From: an uncultured Clostridia bacterium
GTDB taxonomy: Bacteria > Bacillota > Clostridia > Lachnospirales > Lachnospiraceae
Direction: 5' to 3'
Length of the DNA stretch: 64,000 nt
Assembly: GCA_947347075.1 (NCBI GenBank)
Contig: CANADC010000019.1
Span: 18,929 to 82,928, forward strand
The notes below the pieces were generated by a model, which did no database searches, had not been told where the DNA came from, and saw nothing but the letters and a program-made list of their open reading frames with translations. Position 1 is the first letter of the stretch. Each line of letters begins with the position of its first letter. A program made the position numbers and the translations under genes. Shown piece by piece: positions 6,300 to 54,967 of the stretch.

Positions 6300-6666
6300 C
6301 TGGTGAGGGAAAAGTTTGGGTGTGAGAGTGAGGGGATTGGGGGGAGGATGTTGGAGTGAGGAAGGGGAGGAGGCTAGAGTGGGGAAGGGGAGGACGCTAG
6401 AGCGGGGAAGGGGAGGACGCTAGAGTGGGAAGCCATTTCTTCCCGCTGTTCCGCTCTACGGAAAGTAAGAATGTCTAATGCTTCTGGGGATAGGTGCATC
6501 CAGCCGGACGGACCGGGGTGCAATTCGCCCGTGCTGCGGGCTAAACACACCCCTTTTTTTGCCATTCGAGAATGGCAAAAAATCCTAGTGGATCGACAGA
6601 AGCATAAGACATTCTAACTTTCCTCCGAAGTCACAGCGGGAAGAAATGGCTTTCCCACTCTGGCTG
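6300..6666 (+). repeat. Structured repeat family A, copy A1, with a tandemly triplicated G-rich leader
   Basis: Conserved core CCGGACGGACCGGGGTGCAATTCGCCCGTGCAGCGGGCTAAACACACCCC-T6-GCCATTCGAGAATGGC-A6-TCCTAGTGGATCGACAG. It is flanked by two nested complementary stems. It is preceded by three tandem copies of GGGGAAGGGGAGGACGCTAGAG at 6330-6420. The element proper is about 6411-6666. Confidence 0.8.
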
Positions 6667-6725
6667 TCTTTTCCTGCCTGTAAGGTTAGAGTTGATTCAT
6701 TCATCCGTAGAGTTTTTTGTTTTTA

Positions 6726-6810: not shown

Positions 6811-6954
6811 GGTAAGAAATGCAGAGGGGAAAGAGAATGTCTTCTTTGTTACTTTGCTTTTCTTTTTTCAAAGATAGTGTAAAAGTTTATTTGGTTTTTT
6901 GGAATAGGATTATTTTCTTTGAAGTTTGGTATTAGGCAGGTAAAGGGTTGTTTA

Positions 6955-7115
6955 ACCTCATCAAGGAAGTCCCCCGCTTCTAAGCCGCCAAGGCGAAAGC
7001 GGTGGGTTGGGACTTCTTTGTTTCAGTGGGAGTGCAGACTCCCACTGAAAAGCTGCGATAGAAGCTATGAGGTTATGAGCAAGTAGCAAAGCGGATTGCG
7101 AATATCCGATTTGAC
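6955..7115 (+). repeat. Repeat family B, full-length copy
   Basis: AACCTCATCAAGGAAGTCCC / GGGACTTCTTTG foldback. Internal hairpins TTTCAGTGGGAGTGCAGACTCCCACTGAAA and AGCTGCGATAGAAGCT. Conserved 3' end AAGCGGATTGCGAATATCCGATTTGACT. Confidence 0.8.
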
Positions 7116-7481
7116 TGTTGGTTTGGGGTGATATGGAATGAATGATATATATTTTAAAATCAAAAATAAAGCTACATGGTTCGTTTCAGAAATATTTCTT
7201 GACATATAAATAGAATTATGGTAAGTTATTAAAAAAGTTTAGGAGAACATGGAAATGCAGAACTTATATTTTACAATGAATGATATGTACATGTATGACA
7301 GACGTACTTAGAAGTAATTGTGTTTTTGATTGGATGCACAGTTACGCAGGTAGGTCTGATATGTCTGTGCATATAAATTAGTAGGTGTAAGTTGTAATTA
7401 TATTTGCAATAGCCGATGGTTTTAGAAGTGCACTGGACATATTGTATGTTTAGTGTTTTTTTGTTTGGAAAGGAGTTTTTT

Positions 7482-7982: not shown

Positions 7983-8059
7983 GGCATAAGAAGAACGGTA
8001 ATAATGACAATATGGATATGAAAGATTTTGAAAAAATGTAGGATTTATGGATACATAAT

Positions 8060-8160
8060 GGATAGACATGACAGGCACAAAGGTTTTATCTATCACGCAA
8101 CGGTTAAGAAAGAATACAGAAGACAGGGAATCGGAAAAAAGCTGGTTGATATAATCGGGT
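8060..8160 (+). pseudogene. GNAT acetyltransferase fragment
   Basis: Short unframed segment translating to DRHDRHKGFIYHATVKKEYRRQGIGKKLVDIIG (GNAT motif A) with no start or upstream part. Confidence 0.4.
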
Positions 8161-8345
8161 AGGAATGAAATACTGCTATTCCTATGAAGAACAATGGCAG
8201 CCAAAAGATTTCCCGGTTATCTTCAGAATGTATCAGCTTAACTTTGATGAAAATACGGATTTTATATATACTTTTGCTCGGCTTCGTAGTCTGCCGAAAG
8301 CTCTGTGAAACGCTCGTCCGGTATGTGCCCCGCCACGCTGTCCTC

Positions 8346-9014
8346 CTACAGCCGCTTGAAGATAGCGGAGAGTTCCGCAATCCGCTTTTCTGCCGCTTCC
8401 AGCTCTTTCTTCTTGGCGGCGTTCCGGCGTTTGCTCCCGTCCTCGGTCTGCTCGGTCAACAGCTTCATAAACCGGGCTTCGTGCTTGGCGGCGTAGCTGG
8501 TGACTTTCCGTAGGTTCTCGGTCACTCCCTCGGTCAAGAGGTCGGTGCGGATAAAGTGCGCCGTACAGTCTGCCGTGCGCTTCTTGTAGCTGCCGCAGAT
8601 GTAGCAGTCCTGCCGCCGTTTGTCCGTCTGATACCTCTGCTGGTACATGACGCTGCCGCAGTCGGCACAAAAGAGTATGCCGGAGAACAAGCCCACTTCA
8701 TCATAACGGTTGGGGCGTTTGTGCTGCTTGCACAGCTCCTGCACACGCTCCCATGTATCCTTGTCGATTATCTGCTTGTGGTGGTTCTCAAAGATTATCT
8801 GCTTTTCGGCGGGGTTCTCCTTGCTCTGCTTTACCTTGTAGGACACTTTCTCGGTCTTGAAGTTCACAAGGCAGCCCGTGTATTCCCGGTTTTCAAGGAT
8901 ATGCGCCACGGTGTTTGTCGCCCACTTGCACTCATAGCCGGGGTGGTAGCGGCGTGTGCTTCCCGTCCGGTGGTATTCTAGCGTCCCCGGTGTGGGGGTC
9001 TGCTGTTCCGTCAA
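8346..9014 (-). pseudogene. Large serine recombinase, C-terminal portion only
   Basis: Recombinase-domain, Cys-rich zinc-ribbon (CADCGSV...CYICGSYKKRTADC) and coiled-coil tail are present. There is no N-terminal resolvase catalytic domain and no room for one upstream. The DNA is markedly more GC-rich than its surroundings. Confidence 0.65.
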
Positions 9015-9103
9015 GACACGGGCTATCTAATGTGGAAAAATTTGCTTTTGTGTGATATACTGGTCTTGTAAAAAAACACTGTTCCCATGAGAAAGGAAAC
9101 ATA

Positions 9104-9676
9104 ATGAAAATTATAGGATTACTGATACTTGCCGTGTTTTATGCAGTCTACATCAGCAAGATGATATTGCAAAAAAGAAAAGGCATACAGACAGACCAGA
9201 TAGCAAAAGGCAAGCAGAAAACAAAGGTATTCTACATTGAGCTGGCTATGAAAATAGCCACTTATTCCGTGGTTGTGGCGGAAGTCCTCAGCCTGTTCTT
9301 TGCACCTCCATTTCTGCCGCAAACGCTTGTTGCTGTTGGTGTGGTTCTTGGCTTTATTGGAGATATTCTTTTTACTGTATCAGTTGTAACAATGAAAGAC
9401 AGTTGGCGGGCTGGCATAGCAGAAAACGATAAAACAGAAATCATTACCGGTGGGATTTACCGCATAAGCAGAAATCCCGCCTTTTTAGCCTTTGATTGTG
9501 TTTATATAGGTTTGCTGCTTATAGCCTTTAACTGGGTTTTGCTGGTGTTTTCTGTTTTTGCCATGACAATGCTTCATCTGCAAATACTACAAGAAGAAAA
9601 GTTCTTGTCAAAGGCATTTGGGGCAGAGTACAACGCCTACAAAAGCAAAGTCCGAAGGTATTTTGGACGAAAATAA
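9104..9676 (+). CDS. Isoprenylcysteine carboxyl methyltransferase (ICMT) family membrane methyltransferase
   Basis: 190 aa with four hydrophobic helices. C-terminal motif GGIYRISRNPAFLAFD...EEKFLSKAFGAEYNAYKSKVRRY is typical of the ICMT/PEMT family. Confidence 0.65.
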   Translation: MKIIGLLILAVFYAVYISKMILQKRKGIQTDQIAKGKQKTKVFYIELAMKIATYSVVVAEVLSLFFAPPFLPQTLVAVGVVLGFIGDILFTVSVVTMKDSWRAGIAENDKTEIITGGIYRISRNPAFLAFDCVYIGLLLIAFNWVLLVFSVFAMTMLHLQILQEEKFLSKAFGAEYNAYKSKVRRYFGRK

Positions 9677-9683
9677 TTTCAGC

Positions 9684-9878
9684 TCACGCCGAGTAATGTA
9701 TTTTTAGTCCGGCTGTGCTTTCCGCTTCCAGCACTTTCATCATTTTGTCGGTGGTGGCGGTGGTGTCCTGTTTGAAATAGCCCGAAACCACAAGGACGGT
9801 GTTCCCTCTGTGTACTTCTGTCACGCAATCCGGGCGGCGGGCGGTAGTGGCGGTGCTTCTGTTGGGGGTGTCGGTCAT
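9684..9878 (-). CDS. Hypothetical small protein
   Basis: Its start overlaps the stop of the upstream minus-strand ORF by 4 nt (ATGA). It lies in GC-rich foreign DNA and has no recognisable motif. Confidence 0.3.
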   Translation of the reverse strand: MTDTPNRSTATTARRPDCVTEVHRGNTVLVVSGYFKQDTTATTDKMMKVLEAESTAGLKIHYSA

Positions 9879-10465
9879 AGGCTCTCCTTTCTGTTCAGCA
9901 GCGTTTTAAGGCGTTCCATTTTCGCCTGTGCTTTGGCTTTTCTGAAATTCTCCCCGGTAATGCAGACGGGGCAGCACATTTCTGTAAGGCGGTCATAAAT
10001 GCGGGCGTGGGCGGTGTCCTCCGGGTTCTGCAATTCTTTCAGCGTGAGGTTCGTTGTCACGATTAACGGCTTGCCGCTGCGGTATCGGCTGTCAACCACG
10101 TTATAGATTTGCTCTAAGCCGTATTTCGTGCCACGCTCCATGCTGAAATCATCAAGGATAAGCAAGGGGAAGCTGCAAAGGCGGGAGATATATTCGCTGC
10201 GGTCTTTGAAGCTGGCGGCAGCTCCCGCAATACAAGTTTGACCGCATATCGTAATGGGGTATTCTTTATAGGGTGCTTCAAAATATTCGTCTGTTGTGCC
10301 TAAAGGGTAAAACTTTTCTTCTGTGAGGTATTCAAGGGATATTTCCTTTTGCCGCCGTCTGCTCCTGTCACGCCATGCGTTAATAGCCGCAAAGCGTATA
10401 ACGGTCTTGCAATAGCTATTGAACGTATACATGATGTGTTTTCTGTATGCTTCTGTGCAGGGCAT
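9875..10465 (-). pseudogene. DnaC/IstB-like ATPase, degenerate (C-terminal half only)
   Basis: C-terminal half matches the DnaC/IstB family (LLILDDFSMERGT...IVTTNLTLKEL...RIYDRLTEM...ITGENFR). The N-terminal half has no Walker A GxxGxGKT motif and is unrelated. Probably a fused or decayed gene in the GC-rich mobile-element remnant. Confidence 0.5.
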
Positions 10466-10533
10466 AAACGATTCCCTCTTTCTTCCACATAGGGCGTTGC
10501 ATGGTTTACGGTTGCATTTATATAATCTTCCGA

Positions 10534-10851
10534 TTATTCATTAACTCGCTCAACTTTGATAATTACAGGTCTTAATCCGTCATTGCATGAACAAATTGCC
10601 ACACCTTTATGCTTGGGGTCAATCCAATCATCAGAGTACCAACCTTCTGCACCATTTGCCAATGCAAATACATACTGATAGATAGCTTTCCATGCTTCAT
10701 CACAAAAGCCCTCCGGCTTCGCATAGTCGGTATAGAATACCTGTCCTTCTTTCATCAAAGGACATATGCTTAAATTGGGAACGCCATATTCCTTTGCTAA
10801 ATCTTCTTGAAGCGTTGTTTTCAAGATAGTTAATTTACATTTCTTCATCAT
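10534..10851 (-). CDS. Small Cys-containing protein, TIGR04076-like
   Basis: 105 aa, MMKKCKLTILK...CPLMKEG...FCDEAWKAIY...AICSCNDG. The family assignment is from memory. Compact ORF with RBS. Confidence 0.45.
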   Translation of the reverse strand: MMKKCKLTILKTTLQEDLAKEYGVPNLSICPLMKEGQVFYTDYAKPEGFCDEAWKAIYQYVFALANGAEGWYSDDWIDPKHKGVAICSCNDGLRPVIIKVERVNE

Positions 10852-10871
10852 TTTTCAAAGCCCCTTTTCAT

Positions 10872-11453
10872 TTATTCGTAAATTGCTTTTCCAAATTCAT
10901 ATGCTTCCCTTAAATGAGTGGTTTTTGAAATCTGAGGTTTCCCGTTCGTTTCACCACAACCACCAGCAAGCAACATACCTTTATCGTAAAAACCGATATA
11001 GTTTATCAATGTAAACTTATAGTAAGAAACAGCCTGCTCAAACGTCCAAAAAAAGTTATCAGCGGAAGTCATAAGCAAAGCACAATCATGTATGGGATAT
11101 TTCTCATATCGTCCCAAAGGTGGATTCTCGTCTTTTTCTGCTATACAGTAAAAACGTTCAATAAATGCTTTAATTTTTGATGATACAGTCCAGAAATATA
11201 AAGGTGACGCAAATACAATTAAATCCGCCGTTTTTATCTTTGGAACAAGTGAATTAAAATCATCTTTTTGTACACAAGATTTACCATAGCGACAGGCATT
11301 ACAGCCTATGCAGCCATTCACATTCAGTTTGTTCAATGATACCATCTCTACTTGGTGTCCGGCTTCTTTAGCTCCGTTCATAAATGCTTCTGCTAACTGT
11401 GACGTATTTCCATTGACACGCCCGCCGCCTAAAATAACTATTATTCTTTTCAT
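10872..11453 (-). CDS. Flavodoxin-like NAD(P)H-dependent FMN reductase / iron-sulfur flavoprotein
   Basis: MKRIIVILGGGRVNGNTSQLAE (flavodoxin-like nucleotide-binding start). CIGCNACRYGKSC cysteine cluster. ASPLYFW motif. Confidence 0.7.
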   Translation of the reverse strand: MKRIIVILGGGRVNGNTSQLAEAFMNGAKEAGHQVEMVSLNKLNVNGCIGCNACRYGKSCVQKDDFNSLVPKIKTADLIVFASPLYFWTVSSKIKAFIERFYCIAEKDENPPLGRYEKYPIHDCALLMTSADNFFWTFEQAVSYYKFTLINYIGFYDKGMLLAGGCGETNGKPQISKTTHLREAYEFGKAIYE

Positions 11454-11564
11454 GCTTTTTACTCCCTTGCTAAATATCGTTCTTTATGCTATTCTATATT
11501 CGCAATGTCAAAAAGACAAGTACGCACTTTTTTGACAAATACTATCTTTAAGGAAAGTACCTAT

Positions 11565-11912
11565 ATGAGCATGGAAAAATTTGAAAAGAGAATTACTTCT
11601 TTGACTGATACTCCTTTTGGCTATACATTGTCTATGATTGGTGGAAAATGGCGGCTGGTTATTCTCTATTGGCTCGTTGAATACGACACAATACGTTTTA
11701 ACGAACTACAACGAAAAATCGGAACAATCACCTACAAAACATTAAGTACAGAGTTAAAGGCATTGGAAGCAGACGGGCTTATTATCCGTAAAGAATATCC
11801 ACAGATACCGCCAAAAGTTGAGTATAGTCTTTCAAATAAAGGACGTTCCCTCCTCCCCATTATGGAAAGTATGTGTCAATGGGGAACGGAAAACAGCGGA
11901 AAATCTTTTTGA
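11565..11912 (+). CDS. HxlR-family winged-helix transcriptional regulator
   Basis: Start moved to ATG 11565 (RBS AAGGAAAG). GGKWRLVILYWL...RFNELQR...ITYKTLSTELKALEADGLI...PPKVEYSL is the HxlR signature. Divergent from the flavoprotein gene. Confidence 0.75.
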   Translation: MSMEKFEKRITSLTDTPFGYTLSMIGGKWRLVILYWLVEYDTIRFNELQRKIGTITYKTLSTELKALEADGLIIRKEYPQIPPKVEYSLSNKGRSLLPIMESMCQWGTENSGKSF

Positions 11913-12174
11913 CATAAAGGAATGAGAGAGGGATTCCATCATGCTTGTCTTTTGGTCTTTGGTTCGGAATAGTGTGGTGCTGGAGGTCTATCTCTTGTTT
12001 TCGGTTTCTTGTTTCTTTACCGTACATGAGCATTTAGTCGTGGGATGAATTGCTCACATATGTTAATTAAATTTCAAGTAATAATGCTAAAAATAATTGA
12101 TATAACAACATACATCTATTATCGTTTGTATAACGAGGTGATTCTATATGGAAGTGACTCATGGACGTGGATAG

Positions 12175-12295: not shown

Positions 12296-12406
12296 CAATG
12301 CAAAAATTCTAAAATTATTTTTAATAAAAAAAGAAAGAAGGAAATTTAACAAAAAAAAATAAGAATATACTGGAGCAAAGAGAAAAAAGTAGATTGTGAG
12401 ACAATA

Positions 12407-12660
12407 CAGCCAGAGTACTTGAAAGGGAACTGTGACTTCGGAGGAAAGTTAGAAGCTCTTAGACTTCTGTCAATCCACTAGGATTTTTTGCCATTCTCGA
12501 ATGGCAAAAAAAGGGGTGTGTTTAGCCCGCTGTACGGGCGAATTGCACCCCGATCCGTCCGGTTGGATATGCCTAGATTCAGAAGTCTTAGAGCTTCTGC
12601 TTTTCGGAGAGCGGAACAGTTCCCTTTCAAGTACTCTGGCGTTATTTCCGGGGAATTTTT
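12407..12660 (-). repeat. Structured repeat family A, copy A2 (reverse orientation)
   Basis: Same conserved core as A1 in reverse complement. Its outer stem (CAGAGTACTTGAAAGGGAACTG / CAGTTCCCTTTCAAGTACTCTG) and inner stem (GAAGCTCTTAGACTTCTG / CAGAAGTCTTAGAGCTTC) differ from other copies but remain complementary. Confidence 0.8.
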
Positions 12661-19905: not shown

Positions 19906-19935
19906 GCGAATGATTTGAATTTAAACGAATATATG

Positions 19936-20123
19936 TTGGGGGGGACGCTGACATCATTGGGTGATTTTCTGTTGGGGGGACGCTGACACCACTGGATGAT
20001 TCTCTGCTGGGGCCGTTTGCACTAAGGCTTCCTCGCAGCGGACACATAAGGCACGAAAAGACCGTGCCTAAGTGCCGGCGGGAAGCAATACCCCTGCAGA
20101 GATTCATCCAGCGGTGTCAGCTG
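19936..20123 (+). repeat. Structured repeat family C, copy C1, with duplicated G-rich leader
   Basis: Core GGGGCCGTTTGCACTAAGGCTTCCTCGCAGCGGACACATAAGGCACGAAAAGACCGTGCCTAAGTGCCGGCGGGAAGCAATACCCCTGCA. It is flanked by the complementary arms CTGACACCACTGGATGATTCTCTGC / GCAGAGATTCATCCAGCGGTGTCAG. The leader TTGGGGGGACGCTGACA occurs twice in tandem. Confidence 0.75.
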
Positions 20124-20190
20124 TGTATTCCAACCGGAACAGTCGCAGTATTTTGGTTGATTAAAACCGTTTTTGTGTGATTTTAGATAG

Positions 20191-20356
20191 TTTAACCTCA
20201 TCAAGGAAGTCCTCCGCTTTTAAGCCGTCAAGGCGAAAGCGGTGGGTGGGGATTTCCTTGTTTCAGTGAGAGTGCAGACTCCCACTGAAAAGCTGCGATA
20301 GCAGCTATGAGGTTAGGAGCAAGTAGCGAAGCGGATTGCGAATATCCAATTTGACT
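20191..20356 (+). repeat. Repeat family B, full-length copy
   Basis: Same architecture as 6955-7115. Confidence 0.8.
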
Positions 20357-20475
20357 CTATCAAGGAAGTCCCCCGCTTCTAAGCCGCCAAGGCGAAAGTG
20401 GTGAGTGGGGATTTCCTTGTTTCAGTGAGAGTGCAGACTCCCACTGAAAAACTGCGATAGCAGCATAGGATTACA
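20357..20475 (+). repeat. Repeat family B, tandem second copy (5' part)
   Basis: CTATCAAGGAAGTCCCCCGCTTCTAAGCCGCCAAGGCGAAAGTGG...CAGACTCCCACTGAAAAACTGCGATAGCAGCATAGG, directly abutting the previous copy. Confidence 0.7.
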
Positions 20476-20484
20476 AATTTCTTT

Positions 20485-20690
20485 TAACTCCAGAAGGAAT
20501 ATTCCAACAGTCGGAGTAGAGAATTTTTACGGGGCGTTGTTTTTAGAAGGAATGAACCAGCAGACCGAATAAAATATTTTTGTGAAGTATCATTTCCAGG
20601 GGGAATAAGCCAACAGGCGGAATAAAAACGTTTATGAGGTATTATTTTTAGGGGGAACGAAACAGCGGGTAGCATAGAGAGAATCTTTGC
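20485..20690. repeat. Degenerate tandem array of about 4 units of about 55 bp
   Basis: Units are AGAAGGAAT..CCAACAG.CGGA.TA.A...TTTT....G...T.ATTTTT. They are imperfect, of unequal length and have no spacers. Confidence 0.45.
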
Positions 20691-20797
20691 AGGGGTATTG
20701 CTTCCCGCCGGCACTTAGGCACGGTCTTTTCGTGCCTTATGTGTCCGCTGCGAGGAAGCCTTAGTGCAAACGGCCCCAGCAAAGATTCTCTCTATGC
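20674..20797 (-). repeat. Structured repeat family C, copy C2 (inverted relative to C1)
   Basis: Reverse complement of the family C core, flanked by the arms AGAGAGAATCTTTGC / GCAAAGATTCTCTCT. Confidence 0.75.
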
Positions 20798-20947
20798 TAC
20801 CTGCGTCCGGTTCTACAATACCAATATCTGGTTTATAATTGCTGAAGTGGTTTTCTTTTTTTCTGATAACTTTTCTTTAGAAATTGAATAAGCCTTGAAA
20901 ATTAGGGAAATACTCTTGGTAAAATTAGAGTATTGGAGGAGAGAGTA

Positions 20948-23553: not shown

Positions 23554-23916
23554 GGGGTTGTACTGGTTTCGACGGGGATTATGAAGTTGGAGAAGCCACC
23601 TGCGGGTCGGAACCGCATTAGTAAACCGAAAATTAAATATAAACGCAAACGAAGATTACGCGTTCGCTGCTTAATAGCAGCTGTCGCTCTTAGGTAGCTT
23701 ACTGCTTAAGAATCCGGCATCAAGGAGGTAAGGAACTTTGTATCCAAAGCTTTGAGGGTATAAAAGAAAAATGAAGCTACTAAAGCCGGAAACCTGTCCA
23801 TGGGTGTCCGATAGAGGGAACCGTATAGAAAAAGGCTATGCATAAAACAGGGACTGTGGTGGGAGATGCTTTGATGGAGGAGTCTTCGGACAGGGGTTCG
23901 ATTCCCCTCAGCTCCA
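23554..23916 (+). ncRNA. ssrA: tmRNA (SsrA)
   Basis: 5' GGGGTTGTACTGGTTTCGACGGGG matches the tmRNA consensus GGGG..G..CUGG.UUCGACGGG. Internal tag reading frame ends ...ANEDYAFAA followed by TAA. 3' end GGACAGGGGTTCGATTCCCCTCAGCTCCA forms a T-arm plus a 7-bp acceptor stem with the G3:U pair. CCA is not encoded. Confidence 0.85.
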
Positions 23917-23942
23917 TCGGTTAAACGTAACCGTGTTATGTT

Positions 23943-24016
23943 CGAGGTGTGGCTCAGTTTGGTAGAGCGCTACGTTCGGGACGTAGAAGTCGCGTGTTCG
24001 AATCACGTCACCTCGA
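23943..24016 (+). tRNA. tRNA-Pro (anticodon CGG)
   Basis: Cloverleaf folded by hand. Acceptor CGAGGTG/CACCTCG. D-arm GCTC-AGTTTGGTA-GAGC. Anticodon arm CTACG-TTCGGGA-CGTAG with G37. T-arm GCGTG-TTCGAAT-CACGT. 74 nt, no encoded CCA. Confidence 0.85.
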
Positions 24017-24960: not shown

Positions 24961-25128
24961 TTTTTAACCTATTAAGGAAGTCCCCTGCTTCTAAGCCGTG
25001 AAGGCGAAAGCGGTGGGTTGGGAGACTTCCTTGTGTCAGCTGGGGGAAAGTCCCATCTGACAAGCAGCGATAGCAGCATAGGATTATGAGGAAGGAGCAG
25101 ATTCCGAATTTCCTTATTTCCTTTGACT
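24961..25128 (+). repeat. Repeat family B, variant B2
   Basis: TTTTAACCTATTAAGGAAGTCCCC...GGGAGACTTCCTTG foldback with inner hairpins. 3' end GGAGCAGATTCCGAATTTCCTTATTTCCTTTGACT. Confidence 0.7.
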
Positions 25129-26541: not shown

Positions 26542-28056
26542 ATGAGTAAAATAGCAGGTTTAGTAGGGAAAATACAATATTCTATTCGAACCAAAATAAT
26601 AGCATTAATGTTATTTGCGACTTTTGGTACAGTTTTTTTGCTTTTATTGATTAATAATCGATTTTTAGAAGATTATTATTTAATTAGTAAACAGACAAAA
26701 TTGGAAAATGCTTATGTGAGTATGTGTGAATTGGTACAGAGTAATAAAAAGGTGGATGAGGTAGCATTGGAGTTAGAGGGGTTGTGCCAAAAATCCAATA
26801 TTACATTTATTATTTTGGATGCCAATACAGGAATGTTAAAACCAGTCTATTATAATGTGCACAATGTACAGACCCTGCAGGATTTGGTAATGCCTTATTT
26901 ATTTGGAATTGAGAATAGTGCGGTGACTTTAAAAAGGGAAGAGGATTATAGTATTTTTCGAAATAAAGATAGTCGCTATTCGACTAATTTTTTGGAATTA
27001 TTCGGGGTGGAGCCTAATACCAGAGAATATATGCTGCTTCGTATTCCGGTGGAAAGTATAAAAGAAAGCGTAGAGATTTCTAATCGTTTTGTTGCCTATG
27101 TGGGAGGAATTGTCAGTATTTTAGCTATTATGATTTCGATTACGATTACTAGGCGTTTGACCAGACCTTTGTTGGAATTGGCAGAATTATCGGGGAAAAT
27201 GTCTAATTTAGATTTTGAGGCAAAGTATGAGCGGCACGATAAAGATGAAATCGGTGTGTTAGGGCAGAGTATGAATGAACTTTCCAAAAAGTTAGAGCAT
27301 ACGATTTCTGAATTAAAGTCGGCGAATAATGAACTGCAAAAGGATATTGAGCAGAAGATTCAGATGGAGGAGATAAGGAAGGAATTTTTATCGAATGTAT
27401 CTCATGAATTAAAAACGCCGATTGCATTGATTCAGGGATATGCGGAGGGGCTTGCAGAAGGGATTAATGAGGATGCAGAAAGCAGGGAGTTTTACTGTGA
27501 AGTAATTATAGATGAAGCAGATAAAATGAATAAAATGGTAAAGAAACTGCTGACTTTAAATCAATTAGAATTTGGACAGGAACAGATTACGATGGAGCGG
27601 TTTGATTTGACGGCATTGATTTTGGGTGTGATTCAGTCGGTTGAAATTTTATGCAGGCAGGACAAGATTACGGTTTTATTCGAGCAGCGGGAGCCGGTTT
27701 TTGTATGGGGGGATGAGTATCAGTTAGAGGAAGTGGTTACGAATTATATTAGTAATGCGATTCACTATGCAGGCGGAGAGAAGCAGATCGTTGTTTCTTT
27801 GACAAAAAATGAGCATACGGTAAGGGTGTCTGTTTTTAATACAGGGAATCCGATTCCAGAGGAGGAGTTGGGGAAGGTTTGGATTAAGTTTTATAAGGTG
27901 GATAAGGCACGGACAAGAGAGTATGGAGGGAGCGGGATTGGGCTGTCGATTGTAAAGGCAATTATGGAAGCTCATCATAAAGAATATGGGGTTCGAAATT
28001 TGGAAAATGGGGTGGAATTTTGGTTTGAGGTGGATAGTGATACGGGGGTTTTGTAG
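26542..28056 (+). CDS. Sensor histidine kinase (TM-HAMP-HisKA-HATPase)
   Basis: Two TM segments. H-box SHELKTP. N/G boxes (NAIHYAGG, GGSGIGLSIVK). It lies immediately downstream of the response regulator. Confidence 0.85.
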   Translation: MSKIAGLVGKIQYSIRTKIIALMLFATFGTVFLLLLINNRFLEDYYLISKQTKLENAYVSMCELVQSNKKVDEVALELEGLCQKSNITFIILDANTGMLKPVYYNVHNVQTLQDLVMPYLFGIENSAVTLKREEDYSIFRNKDSRYSTNFLELFGVEPNTREYMLLRIPVESIKESVEISNRFVAYVGGIVSILAIMISITITRRLTRPLLELAELSGKMSNLDFEAKYERHDKDEIGVLGQSMNELSKKLEHTISELKSANNELQKDIEQKIQMEEIRKEFLSNVSHELKTPIALIQGYAEGLAEGINEDAESREFYCEVIIDEADKMNKMVKKLLTLNQLEFGQEQITMERFDLTALILGVIQSVEILCRQDKITVLFEQREPVFVWGDEYQLEEVVTNYISNAIHYAGGEKQIVVSLTKNEHTVRVSVFNTGNPIPEEELGKVWIKFYKVDKARTREYGGSGIGLSIVKAIMEAHHKEYGVRNLENGVEFWFEVDSDTGVL

Positions 28057-28063
28057 GGAAATG

Positions 28064-28324
28064 GGGGGAGGGGACGCTAGAGTTTGGAAGCAATTCTTTT
28101 TTGCTGTTCCGCTCTCCGAAAAGTAAGAACGGCTAATGCCTCTGAGTTTAGGTGCATCTGACCGGACGGATCGGCACGCAATTCGCCTCTGCAGGAGGCT
28201 AAACACGTGCCTTTTTTTGCCATTTGGAAATGGCAAAAAATCCTAGTGGATCGACAGAGGCATAAGACGTTCTAACTTTTCTCCGAAGTCACAGCAAAAA
28301 AGAATCGCTTCCCAACTCTGGCTG
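28064..28324 (+). repeat. Structured repeat family A, copy A3
   Basis: Begins 8 nt after the histidine-kinase stop codon. Outer stem AGAGTTTGGAAGCAATTCTTTTTTGCTG / CAGCAAAAAAGAATCGCTTCCCAACTCT and inner stem AGAACGGCTAATGCCTCTG / CAGAGGCATAAGACGTTCT. Confidence 0.8.
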
Positions 28325-28534
28325 TTTTTTCCTGTATTTTTATTGATAAAAAGAATAAAAGGCGAGATGGAGCTGCTTGGGAATGGGTATTGTTAGGTTG
28401 AAAAAGGAAATTTGCATTGTGAAAATGTAAAATCAGGTTGTGAAAATGCAGATTTCGTGATATATTAGGAGAAGAGAGGAAAGCAGGACGGGAATTTTTT
28501 GTAAATTTTATGAATAGAGTGAGAGGTAAGAAGG

Positions 28535-29711: not shown

Positions 29712-29831
29712 TTTAACCTCATTAAGGGAGTCCCCCGCTTCTAAGCCGTCAAGGCGAAAGCGGTGGGTTGGGACTTCCTTGATGAGGTTATGAGCAAGTA
29801 GCGAAGCGGATTGCGAATATCCGATTTGACT
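29712..29831 (+). repeat. Repeat family B, short form (no inner hairpins)
   Basis: TTTAACCTCATTAAGGGAGTCCCCCGCTTCTAAGCCGTCAAGGCGAAAGCGGTGGGTTGGGACTTCCTTGATGAGGTTATGAGCAAGTAGCGAAGCGGATTGCGAATATCCGATTTGACT. Confidence 0.8.
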
Positions 29832-31733: not shown

Positions 31734-31962
31734 TAAGGTTACTCCTTTTTACAATTAATTCATTTTAGTATATCATGAAAACAGAGTTGAGAAAAGTAGT
31801 GACTTTTGAAAATATTGTAATATAAAATAATAATATATATTTAATCGTAAGAATGGATTGATAAATAGAAAATAATATGTTGCAAAGAACTTTTATTTTT
31901 TTAAAAATAGGAAATGGGAAATGACAAATGATATATTAGTAATTTTCAATATTTTAACCTCA

Positions 31963-32066
31963 TCAAGGAAGTCCCCCGCTTCTAAGCCGCCAAGGCGAAA
32001 GCGGTGGACTTCCTTGATGAGGTTATGAGCAAGTAGCAAAGCGGATTGCGAATATCCGATTTGACT
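31963..32066 (+). repeat. Repeat family B, short form
   Basis: TTTAACCTCATCAAGGAAGTCCCCCGCTTCTAAGCCGCCAAGGCGAAAGCGGTGGACTTCCTTGATGAGGTT...GCGGATTGCGAATATCCGATTTGACT. Direct orientation with the copy at 29712. Confidence 0.8.
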
Positions 32067-32224
32067 TGTTCTATATTTTGAGAAGACAAAATACAAATCT
32101 CTTGTTTTTTCTTAATGAAGTATTTAGAGTGGAAAAAATCTCCTTATTAAATTTTGTATATTTCGGATAGATTAAGAAGATACTATCTTGAAGAAAAATA
32201 AAAAATAAGGAGAAGGTGGGAGGA

Positions 32225-33905: not shown

Positions 33906-34013
33906 TTTAACCTCATCAAGGAAGTGCAGACTTTAGACTTTCATTGAAAAGTTGCGATAGTGGCTATGAGGTTATGAGCGAGTAGTGAAGCGGATTGCGA
34001 ATTTCCTTTGATT
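33906..34013 (+). repeat. Repeat family B, divergent short variant
   Basis: TTTTAACCTCATCAAGGAAGTGCAGACTTTAGACTTTCATTGAAAAGTTGCGATAGTGGCTATGAGGTTATGAGCGAGTAGTGAAGCGGATTGCGAATTTCCTTTGATT. Confidence 0.65.
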
Positions 34014-34215
34014 TTTATGCTTTAGTGAAAAATTTCCTATGTTTTACATGGAATATTATATTTATAATAAAATATAGTTGAAAAATTTTAAGGCTGCTTT
34101 TATAATAGAGATGGTAAATAGATCGGAGAGGAAAAATATGGATTTCTCTCCGCATTTTTATATAAAATAGGCGATATATTTTTAATTTAAAGATTTAGGA
34201 GGTTAAATTAAATCC

Positions 34216-34482: not shown

Positions 34483-34524
34483 AGCGATTCTATCAAACAT
34501 TCCGTTGAGATAGACAGATTGTAG

Positions 34525-34648
34525 CTGCTGGTGAATCCCTGCAGGGGTATTGCTTCCCGCCGGCACTTAGGCACGGTACTTTCGTGCCTTATGTGTCCGC
34601 TGCGAGGAAGCCTTAGTGCAAACGGCCCCAGCAGGGATTCACCAGCAG
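34525..34648 (-). repeat. Structured repeat family C, copy C4 (inverted relative to C3)
   Basis: Reverse-complement family C core flanked by the arms CTGCTGGTGAATCCCTGC / GCAGGGATTCACCAGCAG. Confidence 0.8.
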
Positions 34649-34842
34649 ATGCAATCGTCCAGATCGCCATAAACAATCATTCGGCTCACTATAAATAACT
34701 TTCTGGCTCACTATAAACAATCAGATTACTATTCGATCGATTCGAATTAAGGTCTTGTCAGATAATAGAAAATCTGCTACAATCGTATATATGTTCGATT
34801 AATCGAAGCAGGTTTGTAATACTATGGGTAAGGAGAACCACA

Positions 34843-44329: not shown

Positions 44330-44480
44330 GGGAATGGTGTGGATACTGAGATGGGAAAGTTGGGGGGATGGTGTGTGGATATTGAGATGGGAAAGTTGGG
44401 GGATGGTGTGTGGATATTGAGATGGGAAAGCTGGGGGATGGTGTGTGGATATTAGGATAGAAAAGCTGGGGGGATGGTGT
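44330..44480 (+). repeat. Tandem direct repeats (about 4 units of about 37 bp) forming a G-rich leader of family A copy A4
   Basis: GGTGTGTGGATATTGAGATGGGAAAGTTGGGGGAT repeated with minor variants and ending in AGGGGACGCTGGAG. Confidence 0.7.
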
Positions 44481-44735
44481 AGGGGACGCTGGAGTTTGGA
44501 AGCCCTTTCTCTATGCTGTTCCGCTCTCCGAAAAGTAAGAAAGTCTAATGCCTCTGAATGAAAATATATCCAACCGGACGGACCGGGGTGCAATTCGCCC
44601 GTGCAGCGGGCTAAACACACCCCTTTTTTGCCATCAGAAGATGGCAAAAATCCTAGGAGATCGACAGAGGCATAAGACTTTCTAACTTTTCTCCGAAGTC
44701 ACTGCATAGAGAAAGGGCTTCCAAACTCCAGCTGG
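44481..44735 (+). repeat. Structured repeat family A, copy A4
   Basis: Conserved core. Inner stem AGAAAGTCTAATGCCTCTG / CAGAGGCATAAGACTTTCT. Outer stem GGAGTTTGGAAGCCCTTTCTCTATGC / GCATAGAGAAAGGGCTTCCAAACTCC. It follows the carboxypeptidase gene in the same orientation. Confidence 0.8.
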
Positions 44736-44888
44736 TTCTTTCTGGCGATAGATTTGATTTTTATTTTTTATTCAGGTGGGAATGGGAGGGAATTTTGGGG
44801 TGGTTTGGTGGAATGAGGAGTGGTATGATATTTTTTGGTGTGTGGATAGAGATGGGATTTTGAATTAGGAAGGATGTAGTTTAGGAGT

Positions 44889-45557: not shown

Positions 45558-45807
45558 AAAGAATGGGGTCATAAAAAATGAAACGAGAATGGTTTCATTC
45601 GGACATTTCTGTGATATTTGGATTTTATAATAGGCTCTATAAGGGAAATTGTTTAGAAAGGAGTGTCTTAGGTTAAGATGAAAGTATTGCAGAGGATTGT
45701 TTGGAATGTTTTCAGGAGATGGCGGGATGGTGCTGTTCAGTGGAGTAAATTGTGGGGGTTGTGGGGATTGAGAGGGATAGGAGTTTGGGTTGAGGAGGCG
45801 GTGGATT

Positions 45808-48180
45808 ATGACTTGGCCTTTTGAAAATGATACCCGTGCTGTTGTAAAGAAGTTAGCAAAAAGGAGTCTGAAAAGTGAGAGACGCAGGAATCTGATGGTA
45901 GTGGTTGCGGTTGGATTGGCGGCATTTTTGATTTGTTTTGCAGGAATTACATCTGTTTCAATTACACAGATGCAACGCCGTCAGGTGGCTGATACTTATG
46001 AGGCGGTTTTTACTGGTGTTGATGAATCGGATGTGGCAGTTTTAAAAGGTTTGCCAGAGTTTGTCTGCGTGGGTGAATATTATCTGTTGGGGCAGGAGCA
46101 CTCGGAACGAGGATATCATGCATCGTATGTGTACTGTGACAGTGAGATGATGTATATTGCCCGCAGTCAGATGGAATTGGTAAAAGGACGGCTTCCGAAA
46201 CAGGCAAATGAAGTTGTTGTCAGCGAATATTTTCTTTCTGCTTATGGCTCTAATGCTGGAATTGGTGAAACGGTTCTGTTGGATACGGAAAGTTTTCAAG
46301 GGGAATATATGGTGACTGGTATTATGAGGGATATGAGTGAGAAAGAGGAAAATATCTGTGTCTTTGTTGTTTCAAAGGAGACATTGACAGAATGGGCAGG
46401 CTTTAATCCGGTTGGATATCGTGCTTATGTACATTTTCAGAATGATCGGCAGCTTGGTCAGGAGATTATAACTGCCCGCTGCAAAGAGATTGCCGCTCAA
46501 TATGATCTGCCTCCTGCGGGAATAAACAGTAATTATTTCACTTATTATTCAAGGTCGATTGATTTTGTTACAGTTGGTGGTGCTGCAATTCTTGTACTGA
46601 TTGGCGGCTATGTTGTTATTCAGAGTATTTTTCGTATCTCTGTCAATAATAAGATTCGAAGTTATGGACAGCTTCGTACAATTGGCACAACGCCAAAACA
46701 GCTTCGGGGCATAGTAAAGAGAGAGAGCCGACAGCTTGGCAGTATGGGAATTTTGTTTGGAGTTTTTTTGGGAGTCTGTGCAGGATTGGTTTTATTCCCA
46801 AAGGGTGTTCATATTGTTTCTTATGGGATGGTTGTTTTTCTGACAGTATGGATCTGCTGGTTTATGGTGGCTGTTTCTGTTCGCAGACCAGTTAAAATAG
46901 CTGCCGGAATTTCACCGCTGGAAGCAATGCGTTTTTCTATGGGACAGGAAAAAATATACAATCGGAAGAAACATATAAAATTAAATCCTGTATCTATGGG
47001 GATAGCGAATTTTCTGCGTGATCGCAGAAAGGCGGTTAGTATTGTAGCATCTTTAAGTTTGGGTGGAATGATTCTTTTAATTGTATCTTCTATGCTGCTG
47101 ACTCGATCGCCGGAGCAGGCGGCAAGGCTGTTTTTTTCGGACGGAGATTATAAAATCTATTTGGCTTCGGAGCAGTCAGAAACGGAAATTATGAGTATCG
47201 ATAATCCGCTGAATGAAAAGCTGCGGCAGGAAATTTTATCTGTGGATGGGGTAGCAGAGGTGCTGGTTACACGCAGATCCGTACATGCAGCATTTCGGAC
47301 TTCTAAAAATGCTTCCGTAGGTATGTGTGATATGCTGACTCACGAAAATGTTTTGTCAGTAGAAGCTGCACTGGTATCTGGTACGATGCCGAAGGATTCA
47401 CACAGCGTTATTTTGGGTACAAATTATCATAAACATTATGATGATATGATGGTAGGGGCGGTTATGGAACTGTCTTTGGGTCAAAAAACCACTACTGTTA
47501 CGATATGCGGTTTATTTGATGTAACTAAGATTGGAAATGGGCATGGTGCACTTTTTCTTGACAGTGTTTCTATGTTTGCACCAGAAGCACTATTTCAAGA
47601 GATTCTGCCTGAAATTAAAAATTTTGACTATTCTTGGAGTATTGTCAGTGATTCAGAAAAATCAGAGAGCGTGGAAAACGGACTGCAAAAAATCCTGTCT
47701 AACCACAGCAATATTGGATTGGATACTATTGAGGCACATATTGAATATGAGAAATGGCAAAATTCTTTTATTTTCGGGAGTATGCAGGCATTTTCTTGGT
47801 TGATTTTCCTGTTTGGAGTTATTAATTTAATCAATACGACACTTTCCAATCAGATGTTTCGAAAACGGGAAAACAGCATCTTGTGCTCGATTGGTCTGAC
47901 AAAGAAACAACTATATCAGATGAATATTTGTGAGGGGCTTTGTTATACCTGTTTTGTTATTTTGACAGTCTTATTTATGGGGCTTCCAATTGCAGTTATG
48001 GTATGCAGGGAACTGAGCAAGCGATCTTTTAGCGGCAAAATTGTTCCATATCAATTTCCTACCCTTGAAATGGGACTGTTTATCTTGGGACTGTTTAGTA
48101 TAGAATTTATCCTGACCGCTTGGGTGATTCGTAGGCAGAAAAAACAATCCCTAATAGAGCAGATGCGGGCAGCAGAGTAG
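45808..48180 (+). CDS. ABC transporter permease, FtsX-like family (MacB-type, two permease modules)
   Basis: Start ATG 45808 (RBS GGAGGCGG). N-terminal TM, large extracytoplasmic domain, and two blocks of four TM helices. Confidence 0.75.
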   Translation: MTWPFENDTRAVVKKLAKRSLKSERRRNLMVVVAVGLAAFLICFAGITSVSITQMQRRQVADTYEAVFTGVDESDVAVLKGLPEFVCVGEYYLLGQEHSERGYHASYVYCDSEMMYIARSQMELVKGRLPKQANEVVVSEYFLSAYGSNAGIGETVLLDTESFQGEYMVTGIMRDMSEKEENICVFVVSKETLTEWAGFNPVGYRAYVHFQNDRQLGQEIITARCKEIAAQYDLPPAGINSNYFTYYSRSIDFVTVGGAAILVLIGGYVVIQSIFRISVNNKIRSYGQLRTIGTTPKQLRGIVKRESRQLGSMGILFGVFLGVCAGLVLFPKGVHIVSYGMVVFLTVWICWFMVAVSVRRPVKIAAGISPLEAMRFSMGQEKIYNRKKHIKLNPVSMGIANFLRDRRKAVSIVASLSLGGMILLIVSSMLLTRSPEQAARLFFSDGDYKIYLASEQSETEIMSIDNPLNEKLRQEILSVDGVAEVLVTRRSVHAAFRTSKNASVGMCDMLTHENVLSVEAALVSGTMPKDSHSVILGTNYHKHYDDMMVGAVMELSLGQKTTTVTICGLFDVTKIGNGHGALFLDSVSMFAPEALFQEILPEIKNFDYSWSIVSDSEKSESVENGLQKILSNHSNIGLDTIEAHIEYEKWQNSFIFGSMQAFSWLIFLFGVINLINTTLSNQMFRKRENSILCSIGLTKKQLYQMNICEGLCYTCFVILTVLFMGLPIAVMVCRELSKRSFSGKIVPYQFPTLEMGLFILGLFSIEFILTAWVIRRQKKQSLIEQMRAAE

Positions 48181-48330: not shown

Positions 48331-48413
48331 GCCGCAGTGGCGGAATGGCAGACGCACTAGACTCAAAATCTAGCGGGGGCGACCTCGTGCCGGTTCAAGT
48401 CCGGCCTGCGGCA
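48331..48413 (+). tRNA. tRNA-Leu (anticodon CAA)
   Basis: Type II cloverleaf folded by hand. Acceptor GCCGCAG/CTGCGGC. Anticodon arm CTAGA-CTCAAAA-TCTAG. Long variable arm CGGGGGCGACCTCGTG. T-arm GCCGG-TTCAAGT-CCGGC. 83 nt, no encoded CCA. Confidence 0.85.
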
Positions 48414-48553: not shown

Positions 48554-48734
48554 ATAAAAATAGAAAGAACATAACAAATTTTATTCACCATTAGTTTGGG
48601 TAGTTATCAAAAGATAAGATAACTGCCTTTTATTTTATTAAGTCAAAGGAAATTCAGAATCCGCTCCACTACTTCCTTGATAGGTTAAAAAAACAAAAAA
48701 AGAGAAAAAAGAATACCTATATTGTGGAAAAAGA

Positions 48735-48982
48735 CAGCCAGAGTATGGCATTGCAGTACTGTGACTTCGGAGGAAAGTTAGAAGCTTTTAGACTTCTGTC
48801 GATTCATTAGGATTTTTTGCCATTCTTGAATGGCAAAAAAAGGGGTGTGTTTAGCCCGCAGCACGGGCGAATTGCACCCCGGTCCGTCCGGTTGGATGCA
48901 TCTAAATTCAGAAGTCTTAGAGCTTCTTACTTTCTGTAGAGCGAAACAGTACTGCAATGCCATACTCTGGCGTCCTCCCCCC
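48735..48982 (-). repeat. Structured repeat family A, copy A5 (reverse orientation)
   Basis: Reverse complement of the conserved core. The G-rich leader is visible as CGTCCTCCCCCC at the right end. Confidence 0.8.
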
Positions 48983-54624: not shown

Positions 54625-54878
54625 GGGAGGACGCTAGAGTTTGGAACCTATTTCTTGCAGCTGTTCCGCTCTTCGGAAAGAAGAAGCTCTAAGACTTCTG
54701 AGTCTGGGTGTATCCAACCGGACGGAACGGGGTGCAATTCGCCCGTGCAGCGGGCTAAACACACCCCTTTTTTGCCATTCGAGAATGGCAAAAATCCTAG
54801 TGGATCGACAGAAGTCTAAGAGCTTCTAACTTTCCTCCGAAGTCACAGCTGCAAGAAATAGGTTCCAAACTCTGGCTG
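54625..54878 (+). repeat. Structured repeat family A, copy A6
   Basis: Conserved core. Inner stem AGAAGCTCTAAGACTTCTG / CAGAAGTCTAAGAGCTTCT. It sits between the FtsA-like gene and the MVP-like gene. Confidence 0.8.
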
Positions 54879-54967
54879 TTTTTTCCGGCTGGTAGAGGAA
54901 TGTAGATGGCGGTGGTTTGGTTGCCGTAATTTTTTAGGTAAATTGATGAAGTTAGGAGGAAACTGAT

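Follow-up and report, generated by a model that had tools for sequence, protein, structure and literature searches.

Why should a short G-rich sequence be repeated in tandem at the very edge of a palindromic intergenic element? The question is raised by a locus in a DNA stretch of 64,000 nucleotides (the window; positions 18,929 to 82,928, forward strand, of contig CANADC010000019.1, assembly GCA_947347075.1) from an uncultured bacterium of the Lachnospiraceae, in which two groups of such elements, here called family A and family C, are found. A preliminary description of the window had noted, at 44330–44480, about four units of a 37-bp repeat derived from the G-rich leader of the elements. 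Analysis with Tandem Repeats Finder revealed that the array is real and holds about four units but that its period is 35 bp (44337–44480, 4.1 copies, 90% matches, score 221), the spacing of the first unit being 36 bp and that of the others 35 bp. A tandem leader reported at 6330–6420 and a doubled family C leader reported at 19936–19990 were recovered as well, the former as 3.9 copies of 23 bp (6341–6429, score 136) and the latter as 2.2 copies of 35 bp (19934–20012, score 114), and all three arrays border on a long intergenic palindrome, at its GGACGC end. The explanation favoured here, with a probability of about 0.6, is that the arrays are minisatellites formed after insertion by replication slippage, assisted by hairpins and G-runs at the edge of the element; among the mechanisms listed in the preliminary description slippage is the one that fits best.

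The window has seven intergenic arrays, and five of these are in contact with the end of an element of family A or C, while 1.28 would be expected by chance when placed at random within the 11.7 kb of intergenic DNA of the window (P = 0.003). The arrays of the window were recovered in independent assemblies of several samples and are therefore not assembly artefacts.

The elements of family A are ~255–275 bp and those of family C ~142–145 nt long, and both have, as had been proposed, a common boundary pattern in which GGACGC is followed by an arm and the complementary arm by GCTGT. Reading along a family A element, about 5 G-biased nt are followed by GGACGCYRGAG, an interrupted arm, the core, the complementary arm, CTCYRGC-T-GT and a trailer of ~20 nt. 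The core is conserved and asymmetric (CCGGACGGAxCGG-hairpin-GCAATTCGCC..., then a second hairpin between a T-run and an A-run). Family C is a palindrome with a core unrelated to that of family A and with the same ends. The terminal inverted repeats, GGAC-GCYRGAG ... CTCYRGC-T-GTC, run on into arms of ~80 nt.

At least 120 element loci were found in the genome collection, nearly all of them in one uncultured mouse-gut Lachnospiraceae metagenome-assembled genome (MAG), MGBC128194, which is 98–99.7% identical to the window where the two overlap; a few loci, among the matches listed, belong to a second MAG. The copy surveys comprised 99 copies with enough flank, and 96 copies (57 sense and 39 antisense, the class being set by local GC skew) for the tests of termini and flanks. 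Sense-strand GC skew is +0.2 to +0.5 in the genome and 0.2–0.4 per 4 kb in the window, where the intergenic sense DNA is only 4–12% C; over the same genes the skew is 0.32 in the window and 0.25 in a related species (L211).

Across the surveyed copies the amplification recurs at one element boundary, as had been suggested from the window alone. Arrays spanning or abutting the 5' boundary were identified by Tandem Repeats Finder in 14 of 99 copies and at the 3' boundary in 5 of 99, and about 85% of the copies are without an array. In a stricter test, where each flank was searched for the 18-nt terminus of its own copy and transitions were counted as half matches, a duplicate of the 5' terminus was present upstream of 10 of 57 sense copies and of 1 of 39 antisense copies (11/96 in total), the controls giving 0. 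The units consist of upstream flank, GGACGC and the first 8–30 nt of the arm of that particular copy (L028, L041, L057, L079, L108 and L111) and are therefore local duplicates, not independent insertions; between loci the unit sequences are unrelated. Their periods span 13–71 bp, and relative to the first G of GGACGC the end of the array varies between 6 nt before and 31 nt after it, so that there is no fixed cut point. At reversed copies of family A the arrays repeat the trailer motif and sometimes the edge of the arm (L003, L071, L089 and L118).

When comparing the units within an array, identity to the proximal unit was seen to fall outward in most cases (L005, L028, L041, L108, L111 and the window copy A1), the values with increasing distance from the element being 0.96, 0.91 and 0.83 for A1, 0.82, 0.76 and 0.59 for L005, 0.86 and 0.56 for L041 and 0.97, 0.97 and 0.77 for L111. 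The losses in distal units are mainly C to T changes at the conserved motif (GGACGTT, GGATGCT and GGATGTT), with the further forms GGATGCC, GGATACT and GGATATT in L046. Neighbouring units carry common mutations (GGATGTT twice in L005, GTT in L041), which shows duplication from unit to unit. At the junctions of young arrays, the only ones scored since older ones are too decayed, imperfect homologies of 6–8 nt were found, TG(T/C)TGGGG in C1, GGGAAG in A1 and AAAG(T/C)GG in L111, together with TGTGxxGTT(T/C)C in L057 where about 12 of 17 positions match.

Of the window arrays, those at 6341 and 19934 have units that visibly include the GGACGC terminus, but at 44337 only a decayed look-alike remains (GGATACTGAG / GGATATTGAG compared with GGACGCTGGAG); the first unit has GGATACTGAG and the remaining ones GGATATTGAG or GGATATTAGG. 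This array is nearly free of cytosine (5 C in 144 nt) and by itself is not notably folded (z = -1.2). The intermediate decay forms in other arrays (L046, L005 and L041) lend plausibility to the look-alike, and the 44337 units are probably flank plus element terminus at the end of a decay series. The units at 20549–20657 in turn hold a decayed 3' terminus of the reversed copy Cr1 (ACAGGCGGAATA compared with ACAGCGGGTAGC).

The side on which the arrays are found follows the genome strand. Out of 19 boundary arrays 17 lie on the gene-upstream side (5' on the G-rich strand) whichever element end is there, made up of 13 at the 5' ends of sense copies (13/14) and 4 at the 3' ends of antisense copies (4/5), a bias of 17 to 2 for which we calculated a binomial p of about 0.0007. 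Cr1 is the example in the window, its array being at the 3' end and on the upstream side. The number of units is also polymorphic: when leader copy number was compared across samples, as the preliminary description had proposed, the 44337 array was found with 3 units in L122/L123 and 4 units in the window and L127, an interior unit being the one that differs, although these alleles come from metagenome assemblies and short-read assembly could collapse units. The array of C1 was constant at 2 units in 4 other samples, its leader G-run being G6 or G7.

To see what the sites look like when empty, a related species could be used in which the M32 peptidase is 85% identical to P0011 of the window and the gene order is the same along the 21.5 kb that reach from RuvA as far as the NAPRTase gene. 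The spacer between the M32 peptidase and QueH genes is 131 bp in the related species, with an ordinary terminator (-16.4 kcal/mol followed by U6), as compared to 586 bp in the window. The junction between the PilM-like and vault-like genes, the site of copy A4, is 18 bp as compared to 395 bp, and the spacer between tRNA and zf-HC2 gene lacks a block of ~375 nt, consisting in the window of the reversed copy 48733–48976 with its G-run leader (a C-run on the sense strand), while the flanks align on both sides. Upstream of RuvA, Cr2 and its array are absent. Thus no element, array or G-rich leader was found at four orthologous intergenic sites, and the 21.5 kb of the related species contain no element and only three weak tandem repeats, all within genes. 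Leader and arrays are therefore novelties associated with the element and not older host sequence; the leader, present at essentially all copies, does not pre-exist in the host. The corresponding region of the window measures 26.3 kb, the added length coming from the elements and from one additional FtsX-like gene (45790–48180). A metagenome scan with the M32 peptidase gave only distant relatives (mostly 34–51% identity over the full protein, fragments up to 56%), too distant to be of use for empty sites, and when contigs within the species were looked up by exact protein matches all those found break at the array or element, while two of the proteins had no entry.

The sequence ahead of the elements was also studied as such. 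In a logo of 99 copies GGACGC is 97–99% conserved and the preceding 5 nt are G-biased, conservation ahead of GGACGC being limited to these ~5 nt. For the sequence GGGGACGCTRGAR, with at most one mismatch allowed, 9 occurrences were counted in the window where 0.22 would be expected. It stands at the start of each of the six family A copies on the plus strand, besides which the window has two reversed copies. Over the last 60 nt ahead of the copies the G content rises from 0.30 to 0.52 in sense and from 0.12 to 0.22 in antisense copies, which fits a short G-run borne by the element, perhaps with decayed duplicate units stacked upstream; the longer G-rich stretch is in part the G-rich sense strand of the genome and probably in part such decayed units. 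That GGGGGACG would be a target for insertion, as proposed earlier, does not agree with these results, the motif being part of the element, pairing with the trailer and being absent from the empty sites. A match to GGGGACGCTAGAA at 8976–8988 (minus strand) was judged to be due to chance, as it is located in a GC-rich recombinase gene fragment with no adjoining palindrome. The surrounding 8270–9000 (minus strand, within 8001–12000) is GC-rich with zero GC skew, encodes part of a large serine recombinase, from its zinc-ribbon region, and is probably the remnant of an integrated element.

Copy-specific units of variable length and junction, microhomology, a position mostly on the upstream side at either element end, polymorphism and one-sided decay are the reasons for favouring slippage. 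It is well established that slippage can arise when a polymerase pauses at a template hairpin or within it and the nascent end then pairs with a direct repeat (PMC4134008). At the elements, a fork travelling in the direction of the genes would meet an extruded hairpin or cruciform and stall at its near base, or a few to ~30 nt into the first arm. The nascent 3' end may then come loose and pair again with a similar short stretch upstream. This would usually be a G-run, of which there are many in the leader and 12–18 nt into the arm; these runs would serve as source of microhomology, which would account for the G-rich sense copies being the most affected. Backward slippage of this kind would re-copy the flank and the terminal arm segment and give a direct repeat, and from two units on ordinary slippage of whole units could alter the copy number. 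The extra units, being unconstrained, would lose cytosines under the strong C-to-T pressure on the sense strand (GGACGC to GGATGTT or GGATATT), while the element's own terminus stays intact.

Several observations weigh against this explanation. Published assays of hairpin slippage yield deletions, that is forward slippage (PMC4134008), and duplication through backward slippage is an extrapolation from them. The 18-nt 3' terminus of a copy was duplicated in 0 of 96 copies, compared to 11 for the 5' end; only the GGACGC end is thus truly duplicated, and the identity of that end or its G-richness must also matter. Arrays on the downstream side were seen at Cr2, L057 and L064, and the direction of the fork is taken from GC skew and gene orientation on contigs without known origin or terminus. 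At 44337 an alignment of the unit to the terminus of A3 scored 14 as compared to 12.6 ± 2.5 in shuffles, which is not significant; the alignment first made by eye was thus rejected for this locus alone, and for that reason the derivation of these units from the terminus is called probable and no more. Slippage also leaves unexplained a relic downstream of A3 (44836–44857) that is identical to the 44337 array unit at 22 of 24 positions; when the two flanks were compared in 96 copies, no other match exceeded the 99th percentile of the controls. Finally, a cause linked to transcription, for instance R-loops on the G-rich non-template strand just before a terminator, would yield the same side bias.

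The arrays could instead be footprints of mobilisation, where an enzyme of HUH/Y1 type or other nicks GGACGC and abortive re-initiation, by a rolling-hairpin or target-primed process, re-copies the terminus. This is an unlikely explanation, although a cleavage site would account for the strong conservation of GGACGC in families with unrelated cores (142, 230–250 and ~326 nt), and the true duplication of the GGACGC end only would be expected from it, as would the young appearance of the units nearest to the element. Transposition of a single-strand hairpin would in addition leave no target-site duplication, and none was found at any offset pair, flank identity being at most 38% as compared to 34% in permuted controls; flanking direct repeats were no commoner than in mismatched controls (p = 0.64, 96 copies; absent in 95 of 96, A3 being the exception). 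However, unit length and the position of the junction within the arm vary widely, arrays occur also at the 3' ends of reversed copies with a side set by the genome strand (17 to 2), mutations common to neighbouring units point to duplication of one unit from another and it is interior units that change copy number between strains. The periods of 13–71 bp, the variable ends and the arrays at the 3' ends of reversed copies likewise speak against target-site-primed copying, put forward in the preliminary description, and against a fixed cut linked to insertion. No element bearing an open reading frame and no IS200-like transposase was seen in the ~0.88 Mb sampled, where a tblastn search for IS200 TnpA gave nothing below E = 0.7 (RAYTs, the transposases of REP sequences, are more distant from this query), and no GGACGC...GCTGT pair enclosing an open reading frame was found in 812 kb. 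A wider proposal, that the GGACGC-tagged palindromes (A, A-long and C) are new single-strand hairpin mobile elements of Firmicutes with a putative end-specific nuclease or primase, the 5' stubs being footprints of re-initiation comparable to errors of rolling-hairpin terminal resolution, must be regarded as speculative and distinctly improbable.

G-quadruplexes in the G-rich leader, causing instability or being selected for a function, were another suggestion, and of the seven highest G4Hunter peaks in the window six do belong to the six family A leaders, with a borderline mean of 1.56 for the array of A1. Canonical G3+N1-7 motifs are found only at 28044–28073, in the leader of A2, which has no array and is the one copy with such a motif next to it, and at 44778–44800, and the G4Hunter mean is 1.18 at 44337 and 0.73 at 19934, below the value of at least 1.5 across the array that was used as criterion beside at least four G3+ tracts with loops of at most 7 nt. 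As the arrays of L041 and L057 and those of reversed copies are without G-tracts, a G-quadruplex is very unlikely to be the common cause.

Equally little speaks for the extra units being retained because of a function, such as a longer base of an RNA hairpin, protein binding, tuned termination or stability of the mRNA 3' end. Leader and trailer do pair in register, mostly by G·U pairs and effectively on this strand only, 85% of the cells being paired as compared to 46–60% once the register is slid, and the arrays fall within the 3' untranslated regions of genes upstream, shortly ahead of the terminator-like hairpin; but it is precisely at the conserved positions that the extra units decay, they show no kinship between loci, the arrays by themselves are not significantly structured (z = -1.2 and -1.8) and about 85% of the copies have none. 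That the arrays came first, as older G-rich minisatellites of the host into which the elements insert by preference, would suit the unit-like sequence on both sides of A3 and the G-richness of the sense strand throughout the genome but is next to excluded by units holding the element terminus and copy-specific arm, by orthologous empty sites without arrays or G-rich sequence and by the lack of flank-to-flank repeats in 95 of 96 copies. The idea that the G-rich flank of A4 repeats the start of the downstream gene with its ribosome-binding region was likewise rejected (score 11 as compared to 14.5 ± 2.5).

Table 1. Elements, tandem arrays and related features in the window
Feature	Position	Strand	Remarks
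Tandem array, 35-bp unit, 4.1 copies (GTGTGGATATTGAGATGGGAAAGTTGGGGGATGGT)	44337–44480	+	Ends 3 nt short of GGACGC of copy A3
Conserved 5' terminus of A3 (GGGGACGCTGGAG)	44482–44494	+	GGACGC at 44484–44489
Family A copy A3	44484–44734	+	Interrupted arms of ~80 nt around core; ends in CTCCAGCTG
Internal hairpin GGGGUG...CACCCC followed by U6	44585–44629	+	Predicted fold -21.9 kcal/mol
Pyrimidine-rich 3' trailer of A3 (GTTCTTTCTGGCGATAGAT)	44735–44753	+	First 9 nt pair with G-rich leader, mostly G·U
Unit-like relic (TGGTGTGTGGATAGAGATGGGA)	44836–44857	+	Isolated, ~100 nt downstream of A3
Tandem array, 23-bp unit, 3.9 copies (GGGGAGGACGCTAGAGTGGGGAA)	6341–6429	+	True A1 terminus forms the last unit
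Family A copy A1 with trailer	6415–6685	+	
Family A copy A2	28072–28345	+	G-rich leader, no array; G-quadruplex motif 28044–28073
Family A copy A4	54629–54898	+	At gene junction that is 18 bp long in related species
Family A copy A5	59269–59540	+	Orthologous region is L049
Family A copy A6	63863–64000	+	Truncated by window end
Reversed family A copy, short-arm subfamily	12404–12645	-	GTAGATTGTGAGACAAT ahead on plus strand
Reversed family A copy, short-arm subfamily	48733–48976	-	G-run leader, seen as C-run on sense strand
Tandem array, 35-bp unit, 2.2 copies	19934–20012	+	Leader TGTTGGGGGG, GACGCTGACA and first 18 nt of C1 arm
Family C copy C1	19978–20123	+	142-nt palindrome, GGACGC...GCTGT
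Family C copy C2	33747–33892	+	Terminus not duplicated
Tandem array, 52-bp unit, 2.1 copies	20549–20657	+	Just gene-upstream of 3' end of reversed copy Cr1
Reversed family C copy Cr1	20664–20809	-	
Reversed family C copy Cr2	34520–34662	-	
Tandem array, 22-bp unit, 2.5 copies	34669–34723	+	Beside GGACG end of Cr2, gene-downstream side

The elements are located between ordinary housekeeping genes (Table 1). In the window family C is present in four copies, two on each strand, and among GACG-tagged palindromes in 812 kb three size classes appeared, 142, 230–250 and ~326 nt. Sense and reversed copies often form convergent pairs, 130–500 bp apart in the same intergenic region. Bio-informatic analysis of the structure gave for A3 a predicted fold of -143.6 kcal/mol (z = -11) on the plus strand, the minus strand being about equally stable. 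In an alignment of 65 family A copies compensatory double changes were seen at 43 of the 62 pairs of the consensus, and Watson-Crick pairs account for 93% of the paired cells. Mismatches of G·T and A·C type were counted as 74:43 in sense and 47:36 in antisense copies, a mild excess of G·T on the sense strand, so that selection at the RNA level and mutation bias are not separable. From its predicted fold the hairpin inside A3, the first of the two in the core, looks on the sense strand like a candidate intrinsic terminator for the upstream M32 peptidase gene, which a simple terminator scan passed over because the hairpin has internal loops.

Reversed short-arm copies of family A are preceded on the sense strand by AAACGTAGATTGTGGnAyAAT, directly before ACAGCCAGAG (12378–12404 and 48706–48733 on the plus strand of the window, 7120–7150 in L003 and many other loci), which looks like a candidate extended -10 promoter, putatively reading through the palindrome into the next gene. 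A GTTGATTCAT..TCCGTAGAG motif is frequent after the family A trailer. Downstream of A5 (59540–59700, and in L049 4796–5282) a unit of ~66 bp (AGTAAAAGATAGAGGCTCAAATGAGGTA...) is repeated and its number appears to differ between window and MAG.

A second interspersed hairpin family, TTTAACCTCATCAAGGAAGTCC...GGACTTCCTTGATGAGGTTA together with a GCGGATTGCGAATATCC module, has 7–8 copies in the window (6948–7116, 20188–20515, 24962–25031, 29712–29822, 31953–32067, 33928–34016, 57519–57687 and 60104–60155). Beyond A4 an open reading frame of 812 amino acids (54968–57406) matches the shoulder and repeat domains of major vault protein and follows a PilM/FtsA-like gene, a gene pair that is kept in the related species. 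RNA genes and elements were identified at 23554–23919, 23943–24016, 48331–48413 and 59702–59812 (tmRNA, two tRNAs and a thiamine pyrophosphate riboswitch), the riboswitch being placed ahead of thiamine biosynthesis genes.

Neither family A nor family C has a match at gathering score in Rfam 15, the sensitive mode giving only matches far below that score which look like chance, and viral contigs scanned with both cores gave no match; the GGACGC...GCTGT family is apparently undescribed so far. Comparison with known systems starts with hairpin-stimulated slippage (Canceill & Ehrlich; Viguera et al., both as given in PMC4134008), where likewise a strong hairpin acts as barrier and misalignment takes place at short repeats by its base; in the present elements the points of rearrangement are at or just inside the stem. 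The differences are that flank and stem edge are duplicated and the palindrome is kept while classically the hairpin is deleted, and that the present case is built from sequence alone.

Repetitive extragenic palindromic (REP) sequences and the REPINs composed of them (Bertels & Rainey 2011, PMC3116915; PMC3733652) are likewise abundant, intergenic and palindromic, with a tag at one end, covariation in the hairpin and no target-site duplication. Their tandem clusters include flanking sequence and have been ascribed to a second mechanism other than transposition (PMC3116915), but it is whole REPINs that are repeated there whereas the arrays described here repeat only the terminal 8–30 nt and flank. 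REP stems are ~8–9 bp and REPINs ~70–110 bp, while the present elements are 142–330 bp with a structured core and an internal terminator-like hairpin. REP palindromes are 20–40 nt with a GTAG or CGTC tag, and the tag here, GGACGC, includes the complement of CGTC (GACG); an identity with CGTC-tagged REPs was nevertheless rejected, stems and architecture differing from the families in PMC3733652. REPs are served by RAYTs (REP-associated tyrosine transposases), and no RAYT gene was found in the ~0.88 Mb sample using the IS200 TnpA query. REPIN hosts are Proteobacteria while the present host is a Firmicute.

Minisatellites, or variable number of tandem repeats (VNTR) loci, also have head-to-tail units, strain-polymorphic unit number and degenerate units at the edge. 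The present arrays differ from ordinary VNTR loci in being anchored to one boundary of a palindrome, seeded by its terminus and decaying to one side, and we treat them as ordinary slippage minisatellites in an unusual but systematic position. The elements themselves resemble bacterial MITEs (miniature transposable elements with inverted repeats; Correia, RUP, ERIC and Nezha), which likewise are non-coding, high-copy and intergenic with long terminal inverted repeats. Bacterial MITEs can supply terminators or promoters. An origin as MITE of an insertion sequence with a DDE transposase is not supported, the terminal inverted repeats being there but no target-site duplication at any offset. In 812 kb no related insertion sequence was seen, and the arms covary between copies here, whereas MITEs keep a fixed sequence for transposase binding.

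What the locus offers is a natural case, replicated many times, of a palindromic element that seeds short tandem repeats at its own boundary, on a side which points to the direction of the fork or of transcription. In at least one locus the element occupies the place of the ordinary terminator of the related species. Many contigs of the species end inside an element, and these breaks are explained by the element and array sites. The practical consequences are modest: the arrays can serve to mark strains, and for assembly and annotation the elements pose a hazard. For the biology of such genomes, interspersed palindromes and VNTRs, two classes of bacterial repeats, would be linked through one mechanism.

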